A stretch of 42,122 nucleotides of DNA. It comes from an uncultured Blastocatellaceae bacterium. Its GTDB lineage: Bacteria > Acidobacteriota > Blastocatellia > Pyrinomonadales > Pyrinomonadaceae. The position numbers and the translations under genes were made by a program. The stretch covers positions 7,241 through 49,362 of the forward strand of contig CAZEZJ010000001.1 in the NCBI GenBank assembly GCA_964516695.1. The letters run 5' to 3'. Of the stretch, positions 1,525 to 40,404 are shown in pieces. The notes beneath the pieces are model-generated. The model had not been told where the DNA came from. It saw only the letters and a program-made list of their open reading frames with translations, and ran no database searches. How positions within the stretch are numbered: position 1 is the stretch's first letter; each line of letters begins with the position of its first letter.

Positions 1525-3540
1525 CTAGCCTTTCGGAATTTCGATGCCGATGGCTTGGAGAAATCCGGTGGGCTTATCGCCGCCGATGAGCGCGAAGATA
1601 TAATCGTTTGGCAGCTTTATCTTCTCTTCTCTCGTGCGCGCGTCCATCAGCGCGACTTCGCCGTCCGCGATTGATTTGATGGCTTCGCCCAGACGCAACT
1701 TGATTTTGCCTTCGTCGATACACTGGTAGACCTGTAGCTTGTTGCCAAACTTCAAATCGTTCTTAAAGTCGCTGCGCACGACGAGCGTGACGTCGTTAAT
1801 CTCCGGCGGTGGACGAAAAACAATCTGCTCGCCGTCGCGCCGCGCGACCAAATCCACGGCGGCCTCAACGGCTGAGTTGCCGCCGCCGACGATGATGACG
1901 CGGCGACGTTTGAAGTCGTCAGGGTTGGAAAGCTTGTACATCACCTTGCTGCCCGTTTGCCCGTCGCGCGTAATCTGCATGTCTTCATTTTTGACGCCGA
2001 GCCGCATCGGCGTGCCGCGATTGCCGATAGCCAGCACGACGCGCCGCGCGCGATACGTCGCCTTCACCTTCTGCGGGCCTTTCTCCGTCTCAATCAAAAA
2101 ATAATCGCCGTCCTCGGCCTTCAAGACCTTCTGGCAACTCTCGCCTTCGTTGATGTGAACGTCGCCCGCCCTCATGTTGTTGAGCCACGTTTCCAGCATC
2201 TCCTCGCGTTGCTCTCCGGCGATTTTCTTGCGCATCTCGCCCATAATCTTTTCGCGCAAACCCTTGACCAACTGCGCGCGCGCGCTCTCATTGAGATTGC
2301 CGCGTAAGGGGGAAACGACCTGTTCCATCGTCTCGACGACCATCAGCTTGCGCTGCTCTATCGGCATCTCTAAAGACTGCGTTCCCGCTTTATCTTGCAA
2401 AGCCTCCGCCACGGGCAGAGCGCGTTTACCGTGTCCAGAGTCCGTCATCTGCCCGGAGAGTTCGTCCACGATGATTTCGCAGATGGCTGTCAACATCAGG
2501 TCGCGCTGTTCGGAAGCGAGTTTGTCCGCTTTCTTAAAAAGCGATTCGATAATCCGGCGCACGAGCGCGATGTCGCGCACCAGCGCATCCGAATCCGCCG
2601 CGCTTTGTTCGCTGAGGAGTTTGGCGAGCGCTTCTTCGACAAGCTGCTCGCGATGGTCGTATAGCCCTGGAACTTCTATTGCGCCGCGCCATTCCATCGT
2701 CTCCGGCTTGAGAAAAACGTACTTGCCCTTCGGATACGCATCAATCGTCGCCAGCACTTTGTCCTGCTCGATGGCGACGAACTTGAGATTGCATTTGCGC
2801 GCCATCAAAGCCGCTGACAATCCTGCGACGCCAATGCCGATGACGGCCACATCAAGCTCCGCCTTCGGCTCCGGCGCGACACCGTTATTCAGTTCTTGCG
2901 CGATGTGCTTGATGACATCCGCGCCTTCGTTAGCGGCGTTTTTGATGAGCGGCGTGCCCGACACATCGCCGATGATGTAGCAGCCCGCAACGTTCGTCAT
3001 AAACTTTTCGTTGCGCACGGGAACGGGACGCGGGCGTATCTTCTTGGTCGTGTTGACGACGATACACGCCTTCGGATTAACGGGACATTCAAGCTGGCAG
3101 GCCGTGTCTTCCAAACACTGGTCGGGAGCAACAGGCGTGGCGATGTTGTCCTTCATCGCCAACACGTCGTGCGGGCACGCATCAACGCAGGCATGACAGC
3201 CGATGCAGCGGTTCGGAAAAATAACGGGGTGCGGATAGTCCGGCCCATTCGGGTCTAAGAGTGCGAGTTCTTCAGGTGTAATCGGAATGGTCAGGTCAAC
3301 ATCGTCGTCAACAACTTTCGGCGGCGCGGCTGGCTTGGTCAACAAATAACGGGCCAGAGCCGCATCGCTCAAAGCGAAGCCGACGGCGACGATGATGAGA
3401 AATACACTGATGCCCGCCCACCCGTACCACGGCAGGCCGCCGAAGTAGCTCTTCAAAAACTCGCCCTCGCCGGACCACTGGTTAATCGCCAGCAGCAACA
3501 TCAGAAGCGCGAGAATAAGCAGCAATTGCGACTTCTTCAT
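1525..3540 (-). CDS. Membrane-anchored 4Fe-4S ferredoxin / FAD- and NAD(P)H-binding pyridine nucleotide-disulfide-type oxidoreductase
   Basis: Two N-terminal hydrophobic helices. CIGCHACVDACP (canonical CX2CX2CX3CP) plus an atypical CLEDTACQLECP. GxGxxG (VIGIGVAG) and GxGxxA (VGGGNSAVEAA) dinucleotide folds. An AGCYIIGDV flavin motif and a long charged helical insert are also present. Confidence 0.8.
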   Translation of the reverse strand: MKKSQLLLILALLMLLLAINQWSGEGEFLKSYFGGLPWYGWAGISVFLIIVAVGFALSDAALARYLLTKPAAPPKVVDDDVDLTIPITPEELALLDPNGPDYPHPVIFPNRCIGCHACVDACPHDVLAMKDNIATPVAPDQCLEDTACQLECPVNPKACIVVNTTKKIRPRPVPVRNEKFMTNVAGCYIIGDVSGTPLIKNAANEGADVIKHIAQELNNGVAPEPKAELDVAVIGIGVAGLSAALMARKCNLKFVAIEQDKVLATIDAYPKGKYVFLKPETMEWRGAIEVPGLYDHREQLVEEALAKLLSEQSAADSDALVRDIALVRRIIESLFKKADKLASEQRDLMLTAICEIIVDELSGQMTDSGHGKRALPVAEALQDKAGTQSLEMPIEQRKLMVVETMEQVVSPLRGNLNESARAQLVKGLREKIMGEMRKKIAGEQREEMLETWLNNMRAGDVHINEGESCQKVLKAEDGDYFLIETEKGPQKVKATYRARRVVLAIGNRGTPMRLGVKNEDMQITRDGQTGSKVMYKLSNPDDFKRRRVIIVGGGNSAVEAAVDLVARRDGEQIVFRPPPEINDVTLVVRSDFKNDLKFGNKLQVYQCIDEGKIKLRLGEAIKSIADGEVALMDARTREEKIKLPNDYIFALIGGDKPTGFLQAIGIEIPKG

Positions 3541-3548
3541 AACTCTTC

Positions 3549-3617
3549 AGGTTTCAAGGTTTCGAGTTTCAGGTTTCAAGTTCTGCTCCGTAACTTGAAA
3601 CCTGACACTTGAAACCT
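3549..3617 (-). repeat. Nested palindrome of GGTTTCAAG-type units in an intra-operon spacer
   Basis: Core perfect 12-bp stem AGGTTTCAAGTT (3571-3582) / AACTTGAAACCT (3592-3603) with a 9-nt loop. Extra copies of AGGTTTCAAG lie 5' and of CTTGAAACCT lie 3'. It fills the 80-nt gap between the cytochrome gene stop and the flavoprotein gene start. Confidence 0.7.
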
Positions 3618-3620
3618 AAT

Positions 3621-5120
3621 TTATTGCGCGATGAGCGCAGGCTCCGTGGTCTTCAAATCCTTGATGATGGGCAAGCCCGCGGGCGCGCCAAAGAGCTTGG
3701 GCGTCCAGTGTATGTCTTTGATGTGTTGGACGTGGCAAGAGGTGCAGCTTGGCCCGCTGGCCGAAGGCATTTTAGCATCGGCGCGCTCGAAGAAAAGATT
3801 TGTATGACACTTCGAGCAGGTCGTGCGCGGGCTTTCGCGGTCGAGGCGTGCGCCGATGTAGCCCGTGCGGTGGCAACTGCTGCAAGACATCACACGGTTT
3901 GTGTTGTCAACGTCTTCAATGCCGTGGACGTTGAAGGGCACGCGCACGCGGTACATATGAATGCCGTGAAACTGCACGTTGCGCCAGTTGCGTTGATTGT
4001 CCGGCGTGACGCGATTCTTCCTTAACAGTTCGACGACTTCGGGCCTCACGGCCAGTTCTTCCGCGTCCAGTCCCTTCCAAACCCACTCGCCGTTTTTCAC
4101 CGGATAGCCGAAGGTGCCGCCGTGCGGAGTATGCACGCTCTTGCCGTTGTAGAGTTTCTTGTTGTTGTCGTTGTGGCAGCGGGCGCAGGCATCGAGCGCG
4201 TAGTTCATCGGGCTGAAATTCTCGCCGCGATGCTCCGTGTGGCAACTCATGCAGCCGATTCCGGCGTCGCGATGAGGCTTGATGACCGTGGCCGTGAAAC
4301 CGTCGGTCGTATGACAAGAGGTGCAGTTGGCCTCGATGCTGTTCGCCATCGTGTGGCAGTTTGTGCATGAGCCGGCGTTCGGTTTAGTGGCAATCGCGGG
4401 GATGAGCGAAAAGGAGGTCGCGTTGTGCGGGTTCGAAATGGGCTGCGGCGCAAACGCGTTGGCGTGAGCGTACCAGGCCAGAACTGACAGCCCGCCGATG
4501 ACGAGAGCGCCCCAGACGAAAATCGAGAAGGTCCACGGGCGAACCAAATCGCGCGTCGGCGTCCAGTTAAAACGCGACTTGCCGACGTGCGGCGGGCGGC
4601 GCGGGTGCAAGGGGCTGGGGCGTCCGGCCTTCTCGCGCGTGCGCTTGCCCCAGAAGACCTTGAGCGCGTCGGCCACTTCCGACGACGCGCGCTTGGCCGC
4701 GGCGCGCTGCTGCATCGCCCGCATCTCGCTCGACTTTGCGCCGCTCGTCCGCGCTTCAACCTCTCCGACGTTCATCGCAAACTGGTGCGAGACTCTGATA
4801 TGCAAATCGTTGTGGCGATAGTCGAAGTAAAGAGAAAAGGGACCGATTTGCAGAACGTCGCCGTCAGCGAGCGCTTCCGCTTCGTCAGCTTCGATGAGCC
4901 GCCCGTTGAGCGTCGTCGAGCTTGAGCGGCTAAGATTGATGAGAAAGAAGCGTCCGGCGATGAAGTTGATTCCGGCATGGAGGCGCGAAACCGAAGGATG
5001 ATTAAGAGAGACTTCGCACTCCGGCAGACGGCCCACGCGCAAGCCCTCTGTGACCAGCGTGGTCGAGTCTTGCGCACGGTCCTCGCGCGTGATGACGATG
5101 GTGCCTCTCTGTACGTCCAT
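3621..5120 (-). CDS. FHA domain - single TM - heptaheme c-type cytochrome fusion protein
   Basis: N-terminal FHA signature (GR...VSRLHA...LSRSSSTTLNG). Hydrophobic helix WTFSIFVWGALVIGGLSVLAWYA at aa ~196-218. Seven CXXCH motifs: CTNCH, CTSCH, CMSCH, CARCH, CSSCH, CSKCH, CTSCH (aa 252-463, nt ~3711-4373). Confidence 0.85.
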   Translation of the reverse strand: MDVQRGTIVITREDRAQDSTTLVTEGLRVGRLPECEVSLNHPSVSRLHAGINFIAGRFFLINLSRSSSTTLNGRLIEADEAEALADGDVLQIGPFSLYFDYRHNDLHIRVSHQFAMNVGEVEARTSGAKSSEMRAMQQRAAAKRASSEVADALKVFWGKRTREKAGRPSPLHPRRPPHVGKSRFNWTPTRDLVRPWTFSIFVWGALVIGGLSVLAWYAHANAFAPQPISNPHNATSFSLIPAIATKPNAGSCTNCHTMANSIEANCTSCHTTDGFTATVIKPHRDAGIGCMSCHTEHRGENFSPMNYALDACARCHNDNNKKLYNGKSVHTPHGGTFGYPVKNGEWVWKGLDAEELAVRPEVVELLRKNRVTPDNQRNWRNVQFHGIHMYRVRVPFNVHGIEDVDNTNRVMSCSSCHRTGYIGARLDRESPRTTCSKCHTNLFFERADAKMPSASGPSCTSCHVQHIKDIHWTPKLFGAPAGLPIIKDLKTTEPALIAQ

Positions 5121-5130
5121 AACTTTTTGC

Positions 5131-5251
5131 GAGTGATAGGTGATGGGTAATAGGTGATAAGTAAAAGAAAGATGTTTTCTCCTATCAACTATTACCTATC
5201 ACCCATCACTCTTTTACTTATCATCTATCACTCATCGCTTTTCACTACTTG
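5131..5251. repeat. Heptamer-built imperfect palindrome (GTGATRR family), copy 1
   Basis: 5133-5167 = GTGATAG GTGATGG GTAATAG GTGATAA GTAAAAG. 5182-5251 = CTATCAA CTATTAC CTATCAC CCATCAC TCTTTTA CTTATCA TCTATCA CTCATCG CTTTTCA CTACTTG. The arms are complementary and fill the spacer between two same-strand genes. Confidence 0.8.
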
Positions 5252-7744
5252 CTAATGCGCCCTGAAGTAGACGACCTGAAAAATGTGCACGAGCATGAGC
5301 GCCAGCATTAAAGAGGTGGAGACGACGTGCGGCGCGAGCCAGAGCTTGAGCAGTTGGTGCAGGTAGATGAGCGCATCAACGCGCCGCAGCGTGGCGGTCG
5401 TCTCGATGGCTTCGATTAAGAGACGCCGCGCCGCGGGGTCTAGCAAGTCTCCCGCCGCACGCTCAAACGTGGTGCGGGCCTCGGCCCACAGCGCCGTCAA
5501 TTCCTCGCGCCGGATATACTGCCGCAGCAAATATCTGAACGAGAGAAAACGCTTGCGCACCTTGCGCGTGATGAGCTTGCGCAATTTGGTTTGGTCCGGC
5601 TCGGCAATGGTCGCAATCTCGTCGCTAATCTGCGAGAGCGTTTCGCGCAATTCCGCGCGCCGCTCTCTTAAGTCTTCGATGAGCAGCGGGTCGCCTTCGA
5701 TGCTGGTCATAATGCGCGGCACGACGACGTAACAAATGATGCCGAAGAGTCCGGTGACGATGACGAGGTCGAACGTGACCATCAGGAGCGAAGTCAGCAG
5801 CCCGCCGGAGGAGCGCCCGCCGTGCAGGAGCAAGACGATGCCGGCGATTAATCCCAGATAGACGTGCGACAGCATCCAGTAGCGCAAGGGGCCTGCGCGG
5901 CGGCGGTAAATCTGCTTGCGCGCCGGATAGACCATCACCCACGCGATGCCGAAGAGTCCAACGAAGCCCGTCAACCAGCGCACGGTCAGCCAACTGCTGC
6001 CGCCTAGAAGCGCGTCCATCGTGTACTTACGCGCGGCCCAGAAAGTTAAAACAGTCAGGGCAACGGTCGCCAAGATTCCGCCGATGTGCCACATCAAAGC
6101 AACGGGGTCGCGCTTGTGTATGTTGCGCCCGATGGCGTGCGTCTGGTCGCGGAAGATGAGACCGATAGCGTTTTTCGCCTCGCTGAAATATTCACGTGGG
6201 TTCACGCGCACGAGCGCGCCCGTCGGGCAATTCTCCTCGCAGGAGTAAGCATGACGGCGCGTGCCCACGGGATTGAGCGGCGTGTTGTTGCAGAGATTGC
6301 ATTTGACGGCGAGCAGGTTTTCCGTCTCCGTCACAGGCAGAGGCTTTCGCGGCTCTGCGAGCGTCACCCAGTCAACGAGACGTGCGGGCAGACTGATGTG
6401 CGGTAGAGAGGCTTTGCGCGGAATCATCGAAATCGCGTTGTAGGGACATTGCGTGGCGCAATCGCCGCAGCCGATGCAGGTCTTCGGGTTAATGTCTATC
6501 TGCCCGCCGGCGAAGCGTCCGATGGCTCCGGTCGGGCAGCCCGTCAGGCATTCAGGGTCTTGGCAGTGTAGGCAGACGGCGGGCATCAAGACATGCTGAA
6601 TGGAAGCGCGTTGCGGCTCGACGGGGCGCGAGATGTGTATGCCGCGCCTGAGCAGCCTCGACTGGCCGTGAATCTTATGACAGGCCAGCGAGCAATTGCC
6701 GCAACGGACGCACAAGTCCATGTCCATCACGAGCAGATTCATGCCGTCAACGACGCCCGTGGAAATCTCCTTTCCGGCGGCCATCACCACGCGCTTGTCG
6801 GCGGCGGGCTGCGGCGCGGCGGCGTCAGCCAAACCGGAGAAGGCGGCAAACTCCGCGAGCACGGCGGCGCGCAAATCAGGATTGGCTTGCAAGTAAGAGA
6901 CGGAAATCTCCAACACTTCGGTGCGCGCCATGACGGTCGCCGTGTAGAGCCAATCTTGCTGTTCGCGCAGGGCTTCGAGGCCGAGGCAATTGCCAGCGCC
7001 GAGAAAGTCAACGCCCATCTGCTCGCTCACACCCAAGACCATCTCCGACAGTTCAGGGTTGAAGGCCACGCCGCGCGTGCGCCTGACCCAACCGTTTTTG
7101 ATGAAGACGACGCGATTGATGGGGTCTTTCTCTTGAAAGAGCACGTGGTTTTTTCCGTAGACGGTAAAGCGCGCGGCGTTGCCAAGTTTCTTCAGCAGTT
7201 CAGGACTGAAGGCGTTGCCCGCCGCTTGTCTGACATCTTCGAGCGTGCGTTTTAATCCGTGGTCGCGGTAGGTCACGTCGAGCATGTGGCCGAACTTCGG
7301 AAGCTTGCGCAGCAGTCGAAACGCGGGCCGCTGGATTTCGAGCACCTTGGCCTCTGCTTCCGGCGAAGCAATGACGGATGCGTTGCGCGGCAAGCCCGCC
7401 AGCACGGCCATCTCGCCAAAACTCTTGCCTTGCGGAATCTCCGCGACCTTCGCGCTCTTGCCGCTCTCATCCTGAACGAAAACGTCCACCTTGCCTTCGA
7501 CCAGAATATAGAAGGCGTTGCCGCCCCAGTCGCCCTGATTGATGATTTTCTCGCCCGGCTCGTAAATCCAGTAAGTCGCATAGGGGCCGACCTTCTTGCC
7601 CGCGTAGTTGCGCCCGTAGACGATGACTTCCAAATCAAGCTCATACTTGAAATGGCCGTCTTGACGGTCAACCAATTCGGCAATCAGGTCAACGCTCTTG
7701 ATGGCTTCGAGGATGCTTGTGTGATTGGTGATTTCGCGAGGCAT
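5252..7744 (-). CDS. Tandem cyclic-nucleotide-binding domains + four-cluster ferredoxin (DmsB/NrfC-like Cys pattern) + 5-TM domain with two HX13H helices
   Basis: The first CAP-type domain has the cassette FGEMAVLAGLPRNASV; the second is degenerate (GLEAL...LYTATV). Cys groups: CVRCGNCSLAC, CLHCQDPECLTGCP, CIGCGDCATQCP, CNLC...CEENCP. C-terminal TM helices include SHVYLGLIAGIVLLLHG and PHVVSTSLMLALMLVHI. No signal peptide is present. Confidence 0.85.
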   Translation of the reverse strand: MPREITNHTSILEAIKSVDLIAELVDRQDGHFKYELDLEVIVYGRNYAGKKVGPYATYWIYEPGEKIINQGDWGGNAFYILVEGKVDVFVQDESGKSAKVAEIPQGKSFGEMAVLAGLPRNASVIASPEAEAKVLEIQRPAFRLLRKLPKFGHMLDVTYRDHGLKRTLEDVRQAAGNAFSPELLKKLGNAARFTVYGKNHVLFQEKDPINRVVFIKNGWVRRTRGVAFNPELSEMVLGVSEQMGVDFLGAGNCLGLEALREQQDWLYTATVMARTEVLEISVSYLQANPDLRAAVLAEFAAFSGLADAAAPQPAADKRVVMAAGKEISTGVVDGMNLLVMDMDLCVRCGNCSLACHKIHGQSRLLRRGIHISRPVEPQRASIQHVLMPAVCLHCQDPECLTGCPTGAIGRFAGGQIDINPKTCIGCGDCATQCPYNAISMIPRKASLPHISLPARLVDWVTLAEPRKPLPVTETENLLAVKCNLCNNTPLNPVGTRRHAYSCEENCPTGALVRVNPREYFSEAKNAIGLIFRDQTHAIGRNIHKRDPVALMWHIGGILATVALTVLTFWAARKYTMDALLGGSSWLTVRWLTGFVGLFGIAWVMVYPARKQIYRRRAGPLRYWMLSHVYLGLIAGIVLLLHGGRSSGGLLTSLLMVTFDLVIVTGLFGIICYVVVPRIMTSIEGDPLLIEDLRERRAELRETLSQISDEIATIAEPDQTKLRKLITRKVRKRFLSFRYLLRQYIRREELTALWAEARTTFERAAGDLLDPAARRLLIEAIETTATLRRVDALIYLHQLLKLWLAPHVVSTSLMLALMLVHIFQVVYFRAH

Positions 7745-11131: not shown

Positions 11132-11206
11132 AAGGAGGAATGATGAACGCGGAACGATGAACTATTCGAAGCTTGTCTTTGACTGCCGCGTTCATCGTTC
11201 CTCCTT
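11132..11206 (+). repeat. Long hairpin in the tal-pgi / zwf spacer
   Basis: AAGGAGGAATGATGAACGCGG (11132-11152) pairs 20/21 with CCGCGTTCATCGTTCCTCCTT (11186-11206). The 33-nt loop carries a central AAGCTT. Confidence 0.7.
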
Positions 11207-11229: not shown

Positions 11230-12771
11230 ATGTCCTCGATTGTCATGGAAAACCCTCTGCGTGAGGGCATCAGGCTTGAACGAACGGCCGGGCCGTGTGC
11301 GGTCGTCATTTTCGGGGCGAGCGGCGATTTGACGAAACGCAAGCTCTTGCCCGCGCTCTACAGGCTGGTGCAGCAGCGTCTTGTCCCCGCCGAGTTTGCC
11401 ATTGTGGGCCTCGCGCGAACGGAGATGACGAGCGAAGAGTTTCGCGCGCGGATGCGGGAAGCGATTGAGGAGTTTTCGGCGGAGAAGAGCGTTGACGAAG
11501 AGGTCTGGAATTCGTTTGCGCAGAGCCTCTACTACATCACCGGCGACATCAACACGCCCGCCGATTACGTGAAGCTCACCGAACTGCTCGAACAGGTTGA
11601 CCGCGAGCGCGGCACGCAAGGCAACCGCCTCTTTTATTTGTCCGTCGCGCCGCGCTTCTACAGCGAAGCCGTCAAGCAGTTGGGCGAGGCCGGACTCGCC
11701 AAAGCTCAAGACGGAGCGTGGGTGCGCGTCATCATCGAAAAGCCGTTCGGCTCTGACTTGACGAGCGCACGCGCTCTCAATCAGGAGATTCACCAGCACC
11801 TACACGAGTCGCAAATCTATCGCATCGACCATTATCTCGGCAAAGAGACCGTGCAGAATTTGCTGGTCTTTCGTTTCGCCAACGGCATCTTCGAGCCGCT
11901 CTGGAATCGCCAGTACATAGACCACGTTCAACTGACGAACGCCGAGGCGGTCGGCGTTGAAGGACGCGGCGGCTACTACGAGACGGCGGGCGTCGTGCGC
12001 GACATGATTCAGAACCACGTCTTTCAGGTGCTTTCGCTAGTCGTGATGGAGCCGCCCGCGAGCCTCGATTCGGAAGCCGTGCGCGACGAAAAATATAAGG
12101 CGATGATGGCCGCGCGCCCGTTCACAACTGAGCGCGTGCGCGAGGAATGCGTGCGCGGGCAATACGGGCCGGGTTCGATTGCGGGTCAACCCGTGCCCGG
12201 CTACCGGCAGGAAGAGGGCGTCGCGCCTGACTCCGCGACCGAGACCTTCGCGATGCTCACCATGTACTTCGACAACTGGCGCTGGGCGGGCGTGCCCTTC
12301 TTCATCCGCTCCGGCAAGCGCCTGCCAAAGCGCGTCACAGAGATTGCGATTCAATTCAAGTCTGCCCCGCTACAGCTTTTCGGTGAAGCCGGAGAACACG
12401 TCGCGCCCAACCAACTCATCATCCGCATTCAGCCCGACGAGGGCATTACGCTTCGCTTCGCCGCCAAGATTCCAGGACAGACGACCAACATCCGCGAAGT
12501 CAACATGGACTTTCGCTACGGCGCATCCTTCGGCATCCAACTCGCGGAGGCTTACGAACGCCTCCTGCTAGATTGCATCCTTGGCGATTCCACGCTCTAC
12601 GCGCGCAAGGACATGACCGAACACGGCTGGGAACTCGTCATGCCTATCCTAGACGAATGGGCCGCGACGAAAAACGAGGTTGAGTTTCCCAACTACGAAG
12701 CCGGAACCTGGGGGCCACAAAGCTCTCACGAGATGCTCGAACGCACGGGCCGCCGCTGGCGCAGGCCGTAA
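11230..12771 (+). CDS. zwf: Glucose-6-phosphate 1-dehydrogenase
   Basis: Motifs VIFGASGDLTKRKL, RIDHYLGKE and EKPFG. The ATG at 11230 is preferred over the TTG at 11173, which lies inside the upstream hairpin. Confidence 0.92.
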   Translation: MSSIVMENPLREGIRLERTAGPCAVVIFGASGDLTKRKLLPALYRLVQQRLVPAEFAIVGLARTEMTSEEFRARMREAIEEFSAEKSVDEEVWNSFAQSLYYITGDINTPADYVKLTELLEQVDRERGTQGNRLFYLSVAPRFYSEAVKQLGEAGLAKAQDGAWVRVIIEKPFGSDLTSARALNQEIHQHLHESQIYRIDHYLGKETVQNLLVFRFANGIFEPLWNRQYIDHVQLTNAEAVGVEGRGGYYETAGVVRDMIQNHVFQVLSLVVMEPPASLDSEAVRDEKYKAMMAARPFTTERVREECVRGQYGPGSIAGQPVPGYRQEEGVAPDSATETFAMLTMYFDNWRWAGVPFFIRSGKRLPKRVTEIAIQFKSAPLQLFGEAGEHVAPNQLIIRIQPDEGITLRFAAKIPGQTTNIREVNMDFRYGASFGIQLAEAYERLLLDCILGDSTLYARKDMTEHGWELVMPILDEWAATKNEVEFPNYEAGTWGPQSSHEMLERTGRRWRRP

Positions 12772-12775
12772 AAAC

Positions 12776-12849
12776 GGTAATAGGTGATAAGTGATGGGTG
12801 ATAAGTAAAAGCTTTTCTCCTATTACCTATCACCCATCACCCATCACTG
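12776..12849. repeat. Heptamer-built imperfect palindrome (GTGATRR family), copy 2
   Basis: GGTAATA GGTGATA AGTGATG GGTGATA AGTAAAA GC TTTTCTC CTATTAC CTATCAC CCATCAC CCATCAC. The centre is AAAAGCTTTT (12807-12816). It fills the zwf/opcA spacer. Confidence 0.8.
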
Positions 12850-12861
12850 TTTTTGAGAGTT

Positions 12862-20775: not shown

Positions 20776-21408
20776 ATGAAGTCAAGAGCATTGATTCGTT
20801 TGAGTAAATTCGGCCAGAGCGGGTTGGCGTTAGTGCTGGCGTCAGTCTTGCTGCTGTGGCCTGTGTCGGTGTCTGCCTGTGCGTGCTGCTCGGAGGAAGG
20901 CACTTGGGCCGAGTGGACTGAGCGTTTCGACGCATCGGAGTTGGAGGAACTCAGCCGTATCAGATTCGACGCGGTCGCTAACCTCTATGCGAACAACGAA
21001 GAAGAAGCGGGCGGCGGGACTATCGGCAATCTTTACGGCGAACTCGCGCTCTCGTTCTCGAAGCGTGGCCGCCAGTGGGACTTGAGACTCAAAGACCAAC
21101 AGGGGCACAGCGGCACACTGACGCTGACCGTTCCCAACACCCTCACCGAATTTCAAGTGGACATGCAAGACGGGCAGAAAAGCGCGGGCGGCGGGCCGCT
21201 GCTCTACAAGGAATGGCGCTTGACGGGCGCGATTACCGGCGGCGGAGTCTTCAAGCGCCTGAACTCGCGGCAACTGAAATACCGCCTCGTTCTTCAGGGT
21301 CGCGGCAATGCCTGCACGAGCGCCGAAATGTTTGATAGCTGGACGCTCCAAATCTTCGGCCCGCGCGTCTCCTACTCTTTCTACGGCAAATTCAAAAAAC
21401 TCGCTTAA
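20776..21408 (+). CDS. Hypothetical lipoprotein with an N-terminal Cys-Ala-Cys-Cys motif
   Basis: GGGAGAG RBS. The signal peptide ends in the lipobox-like VSAC, followed by ACCSEEG. No recognisable domain. Confidence 0.6.
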   Translation: MKSRALIRLSKFGQSGLALVLASVLLLWPVSVSACACCSEEGTWAEWTERFDASELEELSRIRFDAVANLYANNEEEAGGGTIGNLYGELALSFSKRGRQWDLRLKDQQGHSGTLTLTVPNTLTEFQVDMQDGQKSAGGGPLLYKEWRLTGAITGGGVFKRLNSRQLKYRLVLQGRGNACTSAEMFDSWTLQIFGPRVSYSFYGKFKKLA

Positions 21409-21454
21409 CGAATCACTGCCTTCCAGCGTGGCCGATGTGATACGCTTGGGTGCG

Positions 21455-23137
21455 ATGTCGGAGACGATGCAGAAGGTGGGGCGGCATGGCGCGCGCGGGC
21501 AAAAGCTGTGGTGGCTGATTACCGGACGACTCGCCATCGCCGTCGTGCTCGTGCTGCTGGCGGGCGCGCAGTGGTCGCGCGAGCAGTTGGGCAGCGCTGG
21601 GCGCGGCGCGCTGACGATTTTCGTCGTCGTCGTGTTTCTCTCGCTGGCTTACAGTGTGGCGCTGCGTTTCTTCGGACAACTGAGGGTCCAGGCGGGCGGG
21701 CAGTTGTTGATAGACGTGCTGCTGGTCACCTGGCTTGTCTGGGTGACGGGCGATATACACTCGCCCTACGCCGCCCTCTACATCATCATCATCTCTATCG
21801 CCAGCATTTTCTTAGGCCCGCGCGGCGCGCTCATCTCAGCGGTCGGCTGCGCGCTGGCCTTCACGCTGATTACCATCGCCATCACGGTCGGCGCAGTCGC
21901 GCCCTACACTGGCAATCTGGCCGAGGCCAGCACGATTGATGCGGTCCAGGCCATCGGTCTGAACGACATCGCGTTTCTCGTCGTCGGGCTGCTGTCGGCG
22001 CGTCTCGCTGAACGACAGTCGCGCTCCGATGTCGAGTTGATTGCGACCACGCAGACCTTGGCTAATCTGCGTGCGCTGCATGAGCGCATCGTCGAGTCAA
22101 TCCGCTCCGGCGTCGTCACGACAGACCTACGCGGCCGCATCTACACCTTCAACGCCGCGGCTGAGGAAATCACAGGCTACGAGGCCGAAGACATCCGTGG
22201 GCAGGAGGCTTCGATTCTCTTCGGAGAGCTTTCCCGGCGCATTGAGGATTCCATGCGCGCGGCGGAAGCGGGCGACACCAGCCCCCGCTTTGAATCCGAT
22301 TGCCTGACGCCCGAAGGACACATCCGCCGCCTCGGCTTCAGCATCTTTCCGCTCTCCACCGAATCCGGCGAACACACCGGGCTAGTTATCACTTTTCAGG
22401 ATTTAACGGAAGTGCGCGCTTTGGAAGAGACTTCGCGGCGGCAAGACCGTCTCGCGGCGGTCGGGCGCGTGGCGGCCTCCATCGCACACGAGATTAGAAA
22501 TCCGCTCGCGGCGATGCGCGGCTCGATTCAAGTCTTGCGCTCTGAGACGGCGAATGATTCTTCGCAAGCCGAGTTGATGGAGATTATCCTGCGCGAGTCT
22601 GACCGCCTCAACCGCATCATCACAGACTATCTGACTTATGCGCGCCAGCGTTCCAATACGCTCATGAGCGTTGACATCCGCGACCTCTTGCACGAGACCT
22701 TCACGCTCTTGCGCCATAGTCCTGAGATACGCGCGGACCACGTCCTCGAAGAGGATTTACCGGAAGAGCCAGCGTTGGCCCAGGCCGATGCGGCGCAACT
22801 GCGGCAAGTCTTCTGGAATCTGGCGCGCAATGCCTTGCAGGCGATGGACGGCGGCGGGACCTTGCGCGCCGAGTTGCGCCGCGCCAGCGCCGGACGCTTG
22901 CGCATCACCTTCAACGATACGGGACGCGGCATGACGCCCGAACAAGTCGAACGCCTCTTTGAGCCTTTCTCCTCGACCACGGGCGGCACGGGCCTCGGCC
23001 TCTCTATTGTTTATCAAATCATCCGCGACCACGGTGGTACAATCAACGTCCGCAGCCGCGAAGGACAGGGGACGACCATCGCCATCGAGCTACCGTCAGA
23101 AAGCAGGAGCCAGGTGTCGGAAGTCAAGAACCAGTAG
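21455..23137 (+). CDS. PilS-like sensor histidine kinase (6 TM + PAS + HisKA + HATPase_c)
   Basis: Six N-terminal hydrophobic helices. PAS-like segment (ITGYEAEDIRG). H-box SIAHEIRNPL. N/G boxes (NLARNALQA, DTGRGM, GTGLGLSIV). The start is 21455, or the GTG at 21428; the 21308 extension overlaps the upstream gene. Confidence 0.85.
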   Translation: MSETMQKVGRHGARGQKLWWLITGRLAIAVVLVLLAGAQWSREQLGSAGRGALTIFVVVVFLSLAYSVALRFFGQLRVQAGGQLLIDVLLVTWLVWVTGDIHSPYAALYIIIISIASIFLGPRGALISAVGCALAFTLITIAITVGAVAPYTGNLAEASTIDAVQAIGLNDIAFLVVGLLSARLAERQSRSDVELIATTQTLANLRALHERIVESIRSGVVTTDLRGRIYTFNAAAEEITGYEAEDIRGQEASILFGELSRRIEDSMRAAEAGDTSPRFESDCLTPEGHIRRLGFSIFPLSTESGEHTGLVITFQDLTEVRALEETSRRQDRLAAVGRVAASIAHEIRNPLAAMRGSIQVLRSETANDSSQAELMEIILRESDRLNRIITDYLTYARQRSNTLMSVDIRDLLHETFTLLRHSPEIRADHVLEEDLPEEPALAQADAAQLRQVFWNLARNALQAMDGGGTLRAELRRASAGRLRITFNDTGRGMTPEQVERLFEPFSSTTGGTGLGLSIVYQIIRDHGGTINVRSREGQGTTIAIELPSESRSQVSEVKNQ

Positions 23138-23203
23138 GGAGAGGCGAACGCCTGTTTGGCTAGCGCGTTTATTTCACGCAACTGTGGATGCATATAATTG
23201 AAG

Positions 23204-23578
23204 ATGGAAAGAGCGGCGGCGAAAACTTTTCAGGATTTGATTGTTTGGCAGAAGGCGCACCAGTTTGCGCTGGCGGTTTATCACTATAGTGATTATTTTC
23301 CACAAAAAGAGGTTTATAGCTTAACATCTCAACTCAGACGAGCAGCCGTTTCGATTCCGGCAAATATCGCGGAAGGCTTCAAGAACGAAACCAAGAGTGC
23401 TAAAGCTCGTTTGATAAGCACCGCGCAAGGCTCTCTCGCACAGTGTCGCTACTACTTGATACTGGCGAAAGACCTCGGTTATGGTGACAACCAACAACTG
23501 ATGCCGCAGCTTGAAGAAGTCAGCAAGCTGCTGGAAAAATACAGCGGGGCCATTCTGGCCGGCGCTCCCGACTCCTAA
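23204..23578 (+). CDS. Four-helix-bundle protein (23S rRNA intervening-sequence protein / Avd-like family)
   Basis: Characteristic FQDLIVWQKAHQFALAVY...LTSQLRRAAVSIPANIAEG...AQGSLAQCRYYL. Codon usage is visibly more A/T-rich than in either flanking gene. Confidence 0.8.
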   Translation: MERAAAKTFQDLIVWQKAHQFALAVYHYSDYFPQKEVYSLTSQLRRAAVSIPANIAEGFKNETKSAKARLISTAQGSLAQCRYYLILAKDLGYGDNQQLMPQLEEVSKLLEKYSGAILAGAPDS

Positions 23579-23610
23579 CTCTACTGGCTCCTGACTTTCG
23601 GCATTGAGGT

Positions 23611-25044
23611 ATGTCTAATCTACTGATTGTTGATGATGAGCAGGGAATGCGGCAGCTCTTGACGATTGTCTTTGAGCGCGCGGGCCACACTGTGCGCGCC
23701 GCCGAGAATGGACGCCGCGCGCTGGAATTGCTACGCGCGGAACCTGCCGAGTTGATTATCTCCGACGTGAAGATGCCGGACATGGGCGGCATCGAATTGT
23801 TGCGCGCGGCCCGGGAGTTGTTGCCGGAAGTAGCCGTCGTGATGATGACGGCGTTCGCAACTGTGGAGACCGCGCGCGAGGCTTTCAAGCTCGGCGCTGA
23901 TGATTTCATCCAGAAGCCATTTGACATTGAAGAGATGAAGATTCTCGTCTCCAAGATTCTCGAAAAGCTGGCTCTGAGGCAGGAAAACGAGCAACTTAAA
24001 ACGGAAGTCGAACTGCTCATCAAAGAGCAGCGCGAGCGCGGCAATCTGGGCAACATCATCGGGCGCTCCGAGAAGATGCAAGCTGTCTACCAGATGATTG
24101 AGACGGTCGCGGGAGTGCAGTCAACCATCCTCATCACGGGCGAATCCGGCACGGGCAAAGAGTTGGTCGCCCGCGCCATTCACGACCTCAGCCCGCGCGC
24201 CGAAAAGCCTTTCGTCTCGATTAACTGCGGCGCGTTCACTGAAACGCTGCTCGAAAGCGAACTCTTCGGCTATGTCAAAGGAGCCTTCACAGGCGCAAAC
24301 ACCAATCGCAAGGGACTCTTTGAAGCCGCGCACAGGGGCACTATCTTTCTAGACGAAATAGGCGAGATGTCTTCAGCGATGCAGGTGAAGCTCTTGCGCG
24401 TGCTGCAAGAGCGAAAGGTGCGTCCCGTCGGCGCGCATCAGGAGATAGAGATAGACACGCGCGTCATCGCCGCCACCAATCGCGATTTGGCCGCGATGGT
24501 CAAAGACAGTACTTTCCGCGAAGACCTCTTTTATCGCATCTCCGTCATCCCTATCGAACTGCCGCCCTTGCGCGAGAGAAGCGAGGATGTAAAGCAATTG
24601 ACGGAACACTTCGTCAATAAATTCTGCGCGCAGGCCGGGCGGGCGCTGAGCGTCGCGCCCAAAGCTTTGAATCTCTTGGAAGCTTATTCATGGCCGGGCA
24701 ACGTGCGCGAGCTTGAGCACACAATTGAGCGCGCCGTCGCGCTCGAACGCACAGACTCCATTCAGCCCGAACGCTTGCCCGAACAAATCACCAACTACAA
24801 TCCGGCGCGCGTCGCCTCCGTCTTCGACTTACCCGAAGCGGGACTCAACATCGCCGCGCACCTCGAACATCTTGAAAAGACGTACGTGCTGGAAGCGCTG
24901 CGCCGCACGGGCGGCAATCAAACGCGCGCCGCAGAACTTCTACATCTCTCCGTCCGCTCCTTGCGCCACCTGCTTGACAAGCACGGCATTCGCAACCTGA
25001 CCGCACAGCTACGCGACTCGGCAGCACGCGGCGCAGCCGAATAA
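23611..25044 (+). CDS. PilR-like sigma54-dependent response regulator (REC + AAA+ + Fis-type HTH)
   Basis: REC domain (IISDVKMPDMGG). Walker A GESGTGKE. GAFTGA motif. C-terminal HTH (GGNQTRAAELLHLSVRSLRHLL). Confidence 0.9.
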   Translation: MSNLLIVDDEQGMRQLLTIVFERAGHTVRAAENGRRALELLRAEPAELIISDVKMPDMGGIELLRAARELLPEVAVVMMTAFATVETAREAFKLGADDFIQKPFDIEEMKILVSKILEKLALRQENEQLKTEVELLIKEQRERGNLGNIIGRSEKMQAVYQMIETVAGVQSTILITGESGTGKELVARAIHDLSPRAEKPFVSINCGAFTETLLESELFGYVKGAFTGANTNRKGLFEAAHRGTIFLDEIGEMSSAMQVKLLRVLQERKVRPVGAHQEIEIDTRVIAATNRDLAAMVKDSTFREDLFYRISVIPIELPPLRERSEDVKQLTEHFVNKFCAQAGRALSVAPKALNLLEAYSWPGNVRELEHTIERAVALERTDSIQPERLPEQITNYNPARVASVFDLPEAGLNIAAHLEHLEKTYVLEALRRTGGNQTRAAELLHLSVRSLRHLLDKHGIRNLTAQLRDSAARGAAE

Positions 25045-39487: not shown

Positions 39488-40321
39488 ATGGCTAGCATAC
39501 GCTGGCTTTTTTTGCTAAGATGCCGCATCGAAACGCAACACAACAAAGCACAGCTTTTGGGTTCTATCCATACACGCTGTCTAAACAGGATGCTCGACCG
39601 CGAAGCGTGGAAGACACCTCTAGGAAAAGGCTATGCAAGCCATATGAAGCCGTTATTATCGGAGTTACAGGACACACAAGCGCTCCAAGAACTGGGGCGC
39701 GCGTCCGTCCAAATCGTCCACGACCTAAAAAACCAGCTAAACGGTCTCAAACTCTATGCCACGTTCTTACGTAAACGGATGGAAAAGACCGAACGGCCAC
39801 CGGACGAGCAAGAGACCGTCAATAAATTAATCGCCGGGCTGGAGCGAGCGGCGGCTGACATGTCTACGCTGGTGCGCTTCGGACGCCCCTTGGAACTGCG
39901 CCGCCAGCCGCACGTTGATTTGGCAAAGATCGTCTCCAATCTCCCGCCCAGCGATGACACGAGCCAAGCCGTCAAGCTCGAAGCCGCGCCCGGCCCGTTT
40001 GAGGGCGAATTTGACATCGCCGCCCTGACCGAGGCCCTCAAGACCATCACGGCGGGCGCGCTTGGGCTGCGCCGTCCAGACAGCGACGGACCCCTACAGA
40101 TTCATCTCGGCCCGGACACCAGCGCCGGGCAAACAAGCGCAATCATCGAATGGCGCGGCGTTTCATCTAACGGGACTGATCCTTTTCATTCTTTTGCCGG
40201 AAGCGACGCGCTACGAATGTCTCTGGCCGCGAAGGTCATCGCCGCACACGGCGGAGAGACTAGCCAGCAGGCGGACACCATCCGAGTTCGTCTGCCCCTT
40301 CAAGGCGACATAAAGAAGTGA
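39488..40321 (+). CDS. Soluble histidine-kinase-like protein with an intact H-box but a degenerate ATPase domain
   Basis: A HisKA-like segment (ELGRASVQIVHDLKNQLNGLKLYATFLRK). I could not find clear N, G1 or G2 boxes in the C-terminal half. The start is uncertain (39488, 39590 or 39644). Confidence 0.55.
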   Translation: MASIRWLFLLRCRIETQHNKAQLLGSIHTRCLNRMLDREAWKTPLGKGYASHMKPLLSELQDTQALQELGRASVQIVHDLKNQLNGLKLYATFLRKRMEKTERPPDEQETVNKLIAGLERAAADMSTLVRFGRPLELRRQPHVDLAKIVSNLPPSDDTSQAVKLEAAPGPFEGEFDIAALTEALKTITAGALGLRRPDSDGPLQIHLGPDTSAGQTSAIIEWRGVSSNGTDPFHSFAGSDALRMSLAAKVIAAHGGETSQQADTIRVRLPLQGDIKK

Positions 40322-40404
40322 TGAATGACGAGTAATGAGTGATGAGTGAAAAGACAAAAGCTTTTACTTATTACTCATCGCTCATCGCTCATCGCTCATC
40401 ACTG
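40318..40404. repeat. Heptamer-built imperfect palindrome (GTGATRR family), copy 3
   Basis: GTGATGA ATGACGA GTAATGA GTGATGA GTGAAAA ... AAAAGCTTTT (40356-40365) ... TTATTAC TCATCGC TCATCGC TCATCGC TCATCAC. The first unit contains the TGA stop of the upstream gene. Confidence 0.8.

Follow-up and report, generated by a model that had tools for sequence, protein, structure and literature searches.

Heptamer-armed palindromes at gene junctions of a Pyrinomonadaceae genome and their probable kinship with PF05635 gene cassettes

Our analysis of a 42,122-nucleotide (nt) stretch of DNA (here referred to as the window) connects three palindromes in gene spacers with a class of heptamer-armed repeats that is widespread in the source genome (G000), a Pyrinomonadaceae MAG of 5.46 Mb (681 contigs, 57.7% G+C, 93% complete). 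On balance, we favor the reading that the palindromes with GTGATRR units (family F1) are gene-less derivatives of cassettes that carry a PF05635 gene and resemble the intervening sequences (IVSs) of 23S rRNA, that they are tolerated between the stop codon of one gene and the start of the next, and that they are likely substrates of RNase III. Heptanucleotide repeats (STRR, GGGAATC, and TAACTGA) have been catalogued for decades without a mechanism, and the small open reading frame (ORF) in 23S rRNA IVSs has been without a function since the 1990s. The finding of six PF05635 genes in G000 within hairpins formed by the arms of the gene-less repeats ties both puzzles together and provides an origin that can be tested.

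The three F1 copies in the window, which lie where a preliminary description of the sequence had placed three GTGATRR palindromes, are as follows:

F1 copy 1, subtype A: 5133..5245, no strand assigned, in the spacer of the minus-strand genes 5252..7744 and 3621..5120
F1 copy 2, subtype A: 12777..12847, no strand assigned, with the R arm at 12777-12811 and the Y arm at 12812-12847
F1 copy 3, subtype B (GTGATGA units): 40318..40402, no strand assigned, with the R arm at 40318-40352, the center at 40353-40360, and the Y arm at 40361-40402

The R arm of copy 1 (5133-5167) consists of the heptamers GTGATAG, GTGATGG, GTAATAG, GTGATAA, and GTAAAAG and is followed by a 7-nt center (5168-5174), a Y arm (5175-5209), and an additional partial Y arm (5210-5245). 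Copy 2 lies between zwf (stop codon at 12769-12771) and opcA (start at 12853); the encoded OpcA most closely resembles its counterparts from Pyrinomonadaceae MAGs (Acidobacteriota). The preliminary description of a purine arm of about five tandem heptamers was borne out, as the purine arms of all three copies comprise four to five GTGATRR-type heptamers, the last of which is GTAAAAG, as described, or else GTGAAAA. The exact center said to be common to two copies, AAAAGCTTTT, was recovered in copies 2 and 3 and is absent from copy 1. Each arm, read 5′ to 3′ as the purine strand, indeed contains TGA, TAA, or TAG in all three frames; such stops arise automatically, since any stop-containing 7-nt unit repeated at least three times will give them. 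The first heptamer of copy 3 does supply the TGA (40319-40321) that ends the ORF 39488..40321. The neighbors of copy 1 are on the same strand, as had been stated, with the correction that this is the minus strand for both genes. The proposed fold-back of the arms into hairpins agrees with RNA structure predictions, which yielded −44.3, −32.5, and −42.8 kcal/mol for copies 1 to 3, well below shuffled controls (z-scores of −7.6, −7.2, and −8.2, respectively). With at most one mismatch allowed, the pattern GTRATRRGTRATRRGTRA matched the window 14 times compared with 0 times in 100 shuffles, and a search against Rfam gave no family match within the window. One arm of copy 3 carries TCATCGC three times in adjoining units.

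A genome-wide search, set beforehand as the refuting test (only three copies), revealed F1 to be a large family with at least 129 complete palindromes. These are noncoding, dispersed fold-back elements of 80 to 115 bp, the arms of which comprise four to five tandem GTGATRR heptamers. The tolerant search used for G000 returned 129 pairs of an R arm and a Y arm together with 29 solo R arms and 25 solo Y arms; in most of these "solo" cases, the partner had decayed rather than being absent, and the order of a Y arm followed by an R arm was never seen among F1 elements of this genome. Approximately 76 copies belong to subtype A (GTGATAG/GG/AA) and approximately 47 to subtype B (GTGATGA), and a GTGACGA variant also exists. 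The centers are asymmetric (for example, GTAAAAGAAAGAKGCTTTCTC), are shared within subtypes, and are present in both orientations. An arm contains 3 to 6 units, the order of which is position specific and common to all copies. This unit order and the center are common to >170 copies, with the flanks shared as well at >100 loci, and the end logo reads T-A-A-A-A-R-M-A before the first unit (GTGAT...) and, as its complement, T-K-Y-T-T-T-T-A past the last.

The heptamer build extends well beyond F1. Tandem Repeats Finder identified period 7 as the commonest by far in G000, with 1,034 arrays versus approximately 350 each for periods 6 and 8, and among 897 merged arrays, 230 had an inverted partner within 170 nt, while a direct partner was found in 0. 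At least five sequence-unrelated families of heptamer-armed palindromes (F1 to F5) occur in G000, amounting to at least 230 copies overall, together with a few singletons:

F1, unit GTGATRR, 129 copies
F2, unit GGTAAAA/GGCAAAA, 46 copies
F3, unit GAACGAT/GAACGCG, 15 copies
F4, unit GATTTTA/GATTTGC, with a structured center of about 60 nt, 31 copies
F5, unit GTTTCAR, at least 4 copies
F6 (AGTCCAA), F7 (GGCAGTA), and F8 (GTTTTCA), further unit types from junction comparisons with the congener G001

Two members of these other families were found in the window:

F5 palindrome, (GTTTCAR)n ... (YTGAAAC)n: 3546..3617, no strand assigned, between the minus-strand genes 3621..5120 and 1525..3540
F3 palindrome, (GAACGAT/GAACGCG)n ... 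(ATCGTTC)n: 11132..11206, no strand assigned, between the gene ending at 11131 and zwf

A perfect stem of 21 bp is predicted for this F3 copy. The strict 7-nt periodicity, which had been regarded as unusual, proved not to be so: the same build is common to several families of G000 and to the class Blastocatellia and has been published for Xanthomonas and cyanobacteria (PMC4692102).

The elements occupy a particular place among genes, which in G000 were predicted by our own crude codon-usage caller (4,365 genes, 85% coverage). The flanking genes are on the same strand for 178 (86%) of 208 placeable palindromes, convergent for 23, and divergent for 7, and the elements as a rule start within about 5 nt of the upstream stop codon. 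The depletion from divergent regions is 4- to 7-fold (P = 2.6 × 10−6 by junction count and P = 1 × 10−16 by intergenic length), and about 6.5% of the same-strand junctions of G000 hold an element. The upstream stop codon is a median of −1 to +3 nt away from F1, F2, F4, and F5 elements and 11.5 nt away from the 15 copies of F3. At the other end, the 3′ edge of F1, F4, and F5 lies approximately 8 nt short of the next predicted start, and many copies have a stem base that runs straight into TTTATG or a ribosome-binding site of the GGAG type. F2 is found fairly often at convergent junctions (12 of 41), and the next start lies farther away from it. This placement is most simply explained by tolerance, because both neighbors are spared when an insert folds on itself, has stops in every frame, and extends as far as a ribosome-binding site or start. 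The ORFs that end at the F1 edge are distributed over the three frames at 64:14:13, in favor of the frame of the terminal TAA/first TGA (chi-square test, P = 7 × 10−13), and we count this bias against our preferred reading.

Orthologous junctions were compared mainly between G000 and 400 kb of G001, which shares 82% nucleotide identity with it. In this comparison among few and mutually related genomes, for which the automatic palindrome classifier was noisy and doubtful junctions were judged by eye, a heptamer palindrome was present at the orthologous junction for 16 of 16 G000 elements and 9 of 10 G001 elements. The resident family or subtype was often swapped, with F1 facing F3, F2 facing F6, and F7 facing F8. 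At three orthologous sites, one genome carried subtype A and the other subtype B, and at one site every unit of both arms had changed to GTGACGA. One orthologous F4 pair was, as judged by eye, about 92% identical, which is above the surrounding coding DNA. At the zwf/opcA junction, G000 and G006 carry subtype A, G001 and G003 subtype B, and G002 the GTGACGA variant; this junction is filled in these five related genomes and empty (5 to 8 nt) in two more distant Acidobacteriota. At the junction orthologous to 3546..3617, F5 is also present in G001 and G003 and in decayed form in G002, and F3 at the junction orthologous to 11132..11206 recurs in G001 and G003; in G006 that junction is a 35-nt unaligned stretch in which no element was seen.

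The preliminary description had proposed asking whether elements are inserted or absent at such junctions, and both states were found. An F6 element lies 2 nt past the TGA stop codon in G001, where the matching G000 spacer measures 15 nt, and at the window junction 14028/14069, F3 is present in G001 only. G001 and G003 lack F4 elements found in G000 or retain just two units of them, and it is common for a copy to have decayed, for only half of it to be left, or for the orthologous site to be empty. The distribution is patchy on a larger scale as well. Of 24 genomes sampled from the family, 10 had F1, the pattern of which gave 151, 198, 24, and 21 matches in four congeneric species and 471 matches in a different genus; F2 gave 64, 52, 0, and 5 matches in the same four congeners. 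Copy number ranges at least 6-fold among species of one genus. Blastocatellia samples without F1 and F2 are also rich in period-7 arrays, such as GGATTTT and GAGCAGT in G005 and AGGGTTC and AGTAGTC in G027. One G005 palindrome comprises 37 + 39 units, and the order of its variants is not mirrored between the arms, which argues against a recent fold-back copy; fold-back copying was accordingly rejected as the origin of the arms.

As read from these alignments, elements have come, gone, and been exchanged in the course of evolution, and some junctions have been used repeatedly, because the resident family often differs at conserved junctions and clean pairs of empty and filled sites exist. Of the three roles suggested in the preliminary description, a miniature mobile repeat is the one we favor in view of the spread of copies, the 6-fold change in their number, and the empty and filled junctions; the part of that suggestion that goes further, mobility itself as the cause of the turnover, is what we infer from these patterns. 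It should be noted that the long-lived occupancy of junctions, seen in different species and genera, could alternatively reflect a functional need for a hairpin at these sites, and we count it against our preferred reading.

The link to PF05635 is provided by elements of the same architecture that contain a gene. One of them lies in the window:

Gene-bearing cassette: 23103..23603, plus strand, with a PF05635 (23S_rRNA_IVP) ORF at 23198..23578 between degenerate inverted (AGGAGTC)-type arms at about 23103-23139 and 23570-23603

The cassette is wedged in between the ORFs 21308..23137 and 23611..25044. Its own ORF is a clear member of PF05635 (E value of 2.4 × 10−33), matches the solved Xanthomonas S23p structure 2GSC, and has positional orthologues in G001, G002, and G003, the arms being clear in the G001 copy. 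The preliminary description made no mention of a link to PF05635 cassettes; the window contains this gene in addition to the two palindromes of other families. The PF05635 product is a four-helix-bundle "23S rRNA intervening-sequence protein." As a point against our preferred reading, PF05635 is not known to have a catalytic activity or to move DNA. The family is related to Avd of diversity-generating retroelements (PMC10053308).

Inverted heptamer arms surround every one of the six PF05635 genes of G000. Five of them are flanked by arms of the types F1-C (42-nt inverted repeat), F1-B, F2 (33/33 nt), F3 (30 nt), and F4 (49 nt), and the sixth, that of the window, by the degenerate (AGGAGTC)n-type arms. 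In G001 to G004, inverted heptamer arms of at least nine unit types flank at least 12 of the 15 PF05635 genes. The encoded proteins are divergent (15 to 44% identity), and their clades follow the arm family; this match could be due to co-inheritance, since the cassettes are positional orthologues within the genus. PF05635 was present in 37 of 41 sampled Blastocatellia genomes at 1 to 22 copies. Carriers showed 19 to 53 period-7 arrays per 100 kb in five genomes, with G026 (one copy) marginal at 9, and the sister lineage without PF05635, the sole such family, is also without the repeats, period-7 arrays not being in excess in its two sampled genomes (0 and 5.4 per 100 kb). A scan of distant inverted arms in G000 revealed no recognized cargo gene besides PF05635. 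Two more inserts between such arms (C11 and C414) contain only short unannotated ORFs. None of the six G000 loci matched rRNA in Rfam, and all lie between protein-coding ORFs. The genome also encodes RNase III. Two results count against an origin of the gene-less copies from cassettes: no PF05635 gene was detectable in G006 (95% complete) despite its having the most F1-A copies, and no PF05635 gene with F1-A or F5 arms was found in G000.

Signs of selection at the RNA level were looked for in the hairpins themselves. Sense and antisense hairpins had similar mean stabilities (−44.5 versus −46.1 kcal/mol, with 50 and 57 elements favoring each, respectively), and there is therefore no preference for G-U over A-C on the transcribed strand. 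At variable positions, the two arms of an element were alike in 71.3% of cases, compared with a null value of 70.3 ± 1.2% for arms combined across elements of one subtype. The orientation of the asymmetric centers relative to transcription was unbiased (11:9 for F4, 9:6 for F2, and 31:44 for F1). With no signal in strand, orientation, or arm-specific covariation, these comparisons give no sign of RNA-level selection and lend no support to the terminator, stability, or processing roles raised in the preliminary description. As for footprints of insertion, no target-site duplication was found, which counts against our preferred reading, and none was obvious at the clean empty/filled F6 pair (G001 versus G000). 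A TA duplication within TAA/TAG stop codons, suggested by the zwf/opcA reconstruction and by the frame bias, was considered and rejected, as only 17 of 129 copies had a symmetric TA; the base past the right-hand TA was T in 10, G in 4, and A in 3 of them and hence not a purine as this model would have it. The seeming TAA on both flanks largely comes from a stop codon at one edge and, at the opposite edge, from T+ATG read as its reverse complement. In individual copies, the two flanks usually do not complement each other, and the palindrome is rarely extended into them.

We propose that F1 represents the cargo-less, MITE-like form of a hairpin-bounded cassette that has a PF05635 gene in its loop. 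Such elements would be gained, lost, and replaced at the DNA level by a route other than RAYT, and their persistence would be nearly confined to same-strand junctions, exactly from the stop codon to the next ribosome-binding site or start, where the harm they cause would be small. In the operon transcript, the arms would be expected to zip into a 30- to 40-bp stem, the base of which would juxtapose the upstream stop and the downstream start; with stop and start side by side, translational coupling could therefore survive the insertion. A duplex of 30 to 40 bp is the kind that RNase III excises from 23S rRNA IVSs, and by this analogy RNase III would be the expected processor of the elements. 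The descent of the gene-less copies from cassettes, the preservation of translational coupling, and any role of the PF05635 protein are likewise what we infer from architecture and placement. A bolder extension, which we put forward only tentatively and consider unlikely, is that PF05635 proteins, which form a pentameric ring (2GSC), are sequence-specific readers of heptamer arrays, each lineage with its own arm family and about five units per arm for the five subunits, and that together with host enzymes they mobilize the cassettes or control RNA processing. If this idea were true, a single undescribed class of elements would have given rise to the operon hairpins, the 23S rRNA IVSs, and the heptamers of Xanthomonas and cyanobacteria.

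Tandem 7-nt arrays have precedents. Heptanucleotide STRR repeats, intergenic tandem 7-nt arrays of filamentous cyanobacteria, were reportedly described by Mazel et al. in 1990. Inverted heptamer arrays are already published for Xanthomonas (PMC4692102) and, as STRR, for cyanobacteria. The GGGAATC arrays of Xanthomonas form stem-loop-capable convergent pairs at 70 to 75 loci per genome (Rehm et al. 2015, PMC4692102); 83% of them lie in the same gene context between two species, and they were read as G-quadruplex repeats, with 0 mentions of PF05635 or intervening sequences in that paper (PMC4692102). The build, the intergenic site, and the conservation of context match those of the G000 elements. 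The differences are that F1 units are not G-rich (no G3 tracts), that several unrelated unit families coexist, and that the resident family is often replaced. Since GTGATRR is not G-rich, no G-quadruplex is expected for F1. G-rich families do occur in relatives, an example being GGGGTTG in G002. The TAACTGA arrays of Beggiatoaceae, cyanobacteria, and Bacteroidetes are direct intergenic heptamers with stops in three frames (MacGregor 2015, PMC4679880). They likewise reach at most a few units into the ends of upstream ORFs, occupy tight operon spacers often without a recognizable ribosome-binding site, and have a patchy phylogeny. However, they are direct and oriented toward the downstream start, with one inverted pair in 170 sets, whereas the G000 arrays are always inverted and unbiased.

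The 23S rRNA IVSs of Coxiella, Leptospira, and Xanthomonas consist of a terminal complementary stem and an S23p ORF, are excised by RNase III, occur sporadically, and have been suspected of mobility (PMC4990558). The six G000 cassettes likewise have a long stem that encloses a PF05635 gene of about 120 amino acids. In contrast to the IVSs, these cassettes lie between protein-coding genes and not in helix 25 or 45, and their stems are built of heptamers; furthermore, the three spacer copies in the window carry no gene, and cleavage by RNase III, shown for rRNA, is here a matter of analogy. Among the open-access literature, we found no paper that joins the IVS protein with heptamer repeats.

The alternative that deserves the closest attention, although we judge it unlikely, is that selection maintains the hairpins as cis-acting RNA elements that set the ratios of neighboring genes in operons through processing, stability, or coupling, perhaps read by a cognate PF05635 protein, so that family turnover would amount to the replacement of one working hairpin by another. 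Such a function would account for junctions that remain occupied at 82% identity and in other genera despite a change of family, for the placement between the stop codon and the ribosome-binding site or start, and for the strong depletion from promoter regions; it would also fit the existence of a separate PF05635 lineage for each arm family and of orthologous copies that exceed coding DNA in similarity (the F4 pair, about 92% by eye). It is at odds, however, with the equal stability of sense and antisense hairpins, with centers that point either way relative to transcription, with the lack of pairing-preserving covariation beyond the family consensus, and with the frequency of decayed, half, and empty orthologous sites. 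That the elements act as leaky or bidirectional intrinsic terminators or as hairpins protecting 3′ ends (A-tract, stem, T-tract) appears distinctly improbable. Their 86% share within same-strand gene strings, including zwf-opcA with its ancestral spacer of 5 to 8 nt, speaks against it, as do stems of 30 to 40 bp with an A/U-rich base, compared with the short G+C-rich stems of known terminators. The flank consensus, T-A-A-A-A-R-M-A before and T-K-Y-T-T-T-T-A after the element, would suit a terminator, but the flanks of individual copies mostly do not pair; the relative frequency of F2 between convergent genes (12 of 41) also points in this direction. A consensus scan for terminators did not flag the elements, which its limits (at most 20 pairs and a loop of 3 to 8) may exclude.

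Local replication slippage of heptanucleotide simple-sequence repeats, without copying between loci, is even harder to reconcile with more than 100 loci that have an identical center, flanks, and position-specific unit order, with partner arrays that are inverted in 230 cases and direct in 0, and with the bracketing of PF05635 genes by these very arms, and we give it very little credence. Heptamers are the commonest long class of simple-sequence repeats in many bacteria (cited in PMC4679880), the arms vary from 3 to 6 units, rare variants recur in adjoining units (TCATCGC three times in copy 3), and the 37 + 39-unit G005 palindrome lacks mirrored variants; slippage is thus a plausible source of variation in arm length, though not of the spread of the family. 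The least probable of these explanations is that the elements are REP/REPIN sequences mobilized by RAYT, an IS200/IS605-type Y1 transposase. The resemblance to REP/BIME elements noted in the preliminary description stands as an analogy (hairpin-forming and extragenic) and ends there, as neither a RAYT gene nor a GTAG/CGTC head was found. High-copy extragenic imperfect palindromes between co-transcribed genes are indeed known from enterobacteria and pseudomonads (PMC3116915), but PF01797 (Y1_Tnp) had 0 matches in G000 (93% complete) versus 6 of 14 control genomes in the same search, the ends of the 80- to 115-bp elements lack the GTAG or CGTC tag that, at one end of a 20- to 40-bp palindrome, defines the REP family (PMC3733652), and REPs have no internal 7-nt periodicity. 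The G000 elements are like REP/BIME, REPIN, and MITE sequences in being short, high copy, hairpin forming, nonautonomous, and mostly located between co-transcribed genes or at gene 3′ ends. They differ from these in that RAYT, a known transposase partner, and a target-site duplication are all absent, in the 7-nt periodicity of the arms, and in a tighter placement relative to stops and starts. The hallmarks of MITEs, namely, terminal inverted repeats, small size, no coding capacity, and many copies, are present. Longer elements with the same arms exist; their cargo is PF05635, which is not a known recombinase.

With a hairpin of 30 to 40 bp at about 6.5% of the same-strand junctions of this soil bacterium, effects are to be expected on operon expression, on MAG assembly, and on gene calling, for which the repeats supply stop codons and spurious starts. 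GTGATGA arrays were also observed in 14 IMG/VR viral contigs with G+C contents from 36% to 70%, and the unit is therefore not specific to this lineage. Three family-specific likenesses were noticed post hoc: AGGTGAT, present in the type-A arm, is complementary to the 3′ tail of 16S rRNA; GTGATGA is identical to the archaeal C-box; and UAG-N4-UAG is similar to a HutP site.

Besides the F1 elements built from GTGATRR heptamers, two neighbouring gene junctions of the window are filled by palindromes of other families, and farther downstream a PF05635 gene (23S_rRNA_IVP, "23S rRNA intervening-sequence protein") was found.

3546-3617, F5 palindrome of GTTTCAR units
11132-11206, F3 palindrome of GAACGAT/GAACGCG units
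23198-23578, PF05635 gene, between the ORFs at 21308..23137 and 23611..25044

With these F5 and F3 elements, three different families therefore punctuate the three-gene redox cluster and the zwf region. Within the type-A arms of F1 (5133-5160 and 12777-12804), the motif AGGTGAT is repeated. Since this motif is complementary to AUCACCU in the conserved 3′ tail of 16S rRNA, the pyrimidine arm of the type-A elements appears, as judged from sequence, to mimic the anti-Shine-Dalgarno region. The match to the 16S tail was absent from the type B arms (GTGATGA).

The PF05635 gene of the window is flanked by degenerate inverted heptamer arms of the (AGGAGTC) type and has positional orthologues in three further species of the genus. 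A PF05635 gene is also bracketed by one of the G-rich palindromes of a congener (G002), and another Pyrinomonadaceae genome (G008) carries 22 such genes, compared with 1-6 typical among relatives. Outside the window, the following elements were located.

L103 (G002) and junction C9 12298-12625, G-rich palindromes of GGGGTTG/GGGGTTA heptamers in G002
Source genome, C414 2724-3085, 300-nt insert bracketed by F1-B arms
Source genome, C11 9139-9405, 175-nt insert bracketed by F1-B arms
Relative G005, L041 18189-18762, giant palindrome of GAGCAGT-type units

The G002 palindromes could form G-quadruplexes, a possibility that they share with Xanthomonas repeats. Neither F1-B-armed insert contains a PF05635 gene; the one in C414 encloses a further inverted repeat of its own (GGTAGTGGTTCAGTTTGG...), along with an ORF of 83 codons. 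The arms of the giant palindrome are balanced in length (37 and 39 units), but their unit variants do not follow a mirrored order. Finally, 14 IMG/VR contigs of viral or proviral type (L136-L149), ranging from 36% to 70% G+C, contain exact GTGATGA arrays of 28 nt, with a palindromic arrangement in two of these contigs (L139 and L149).
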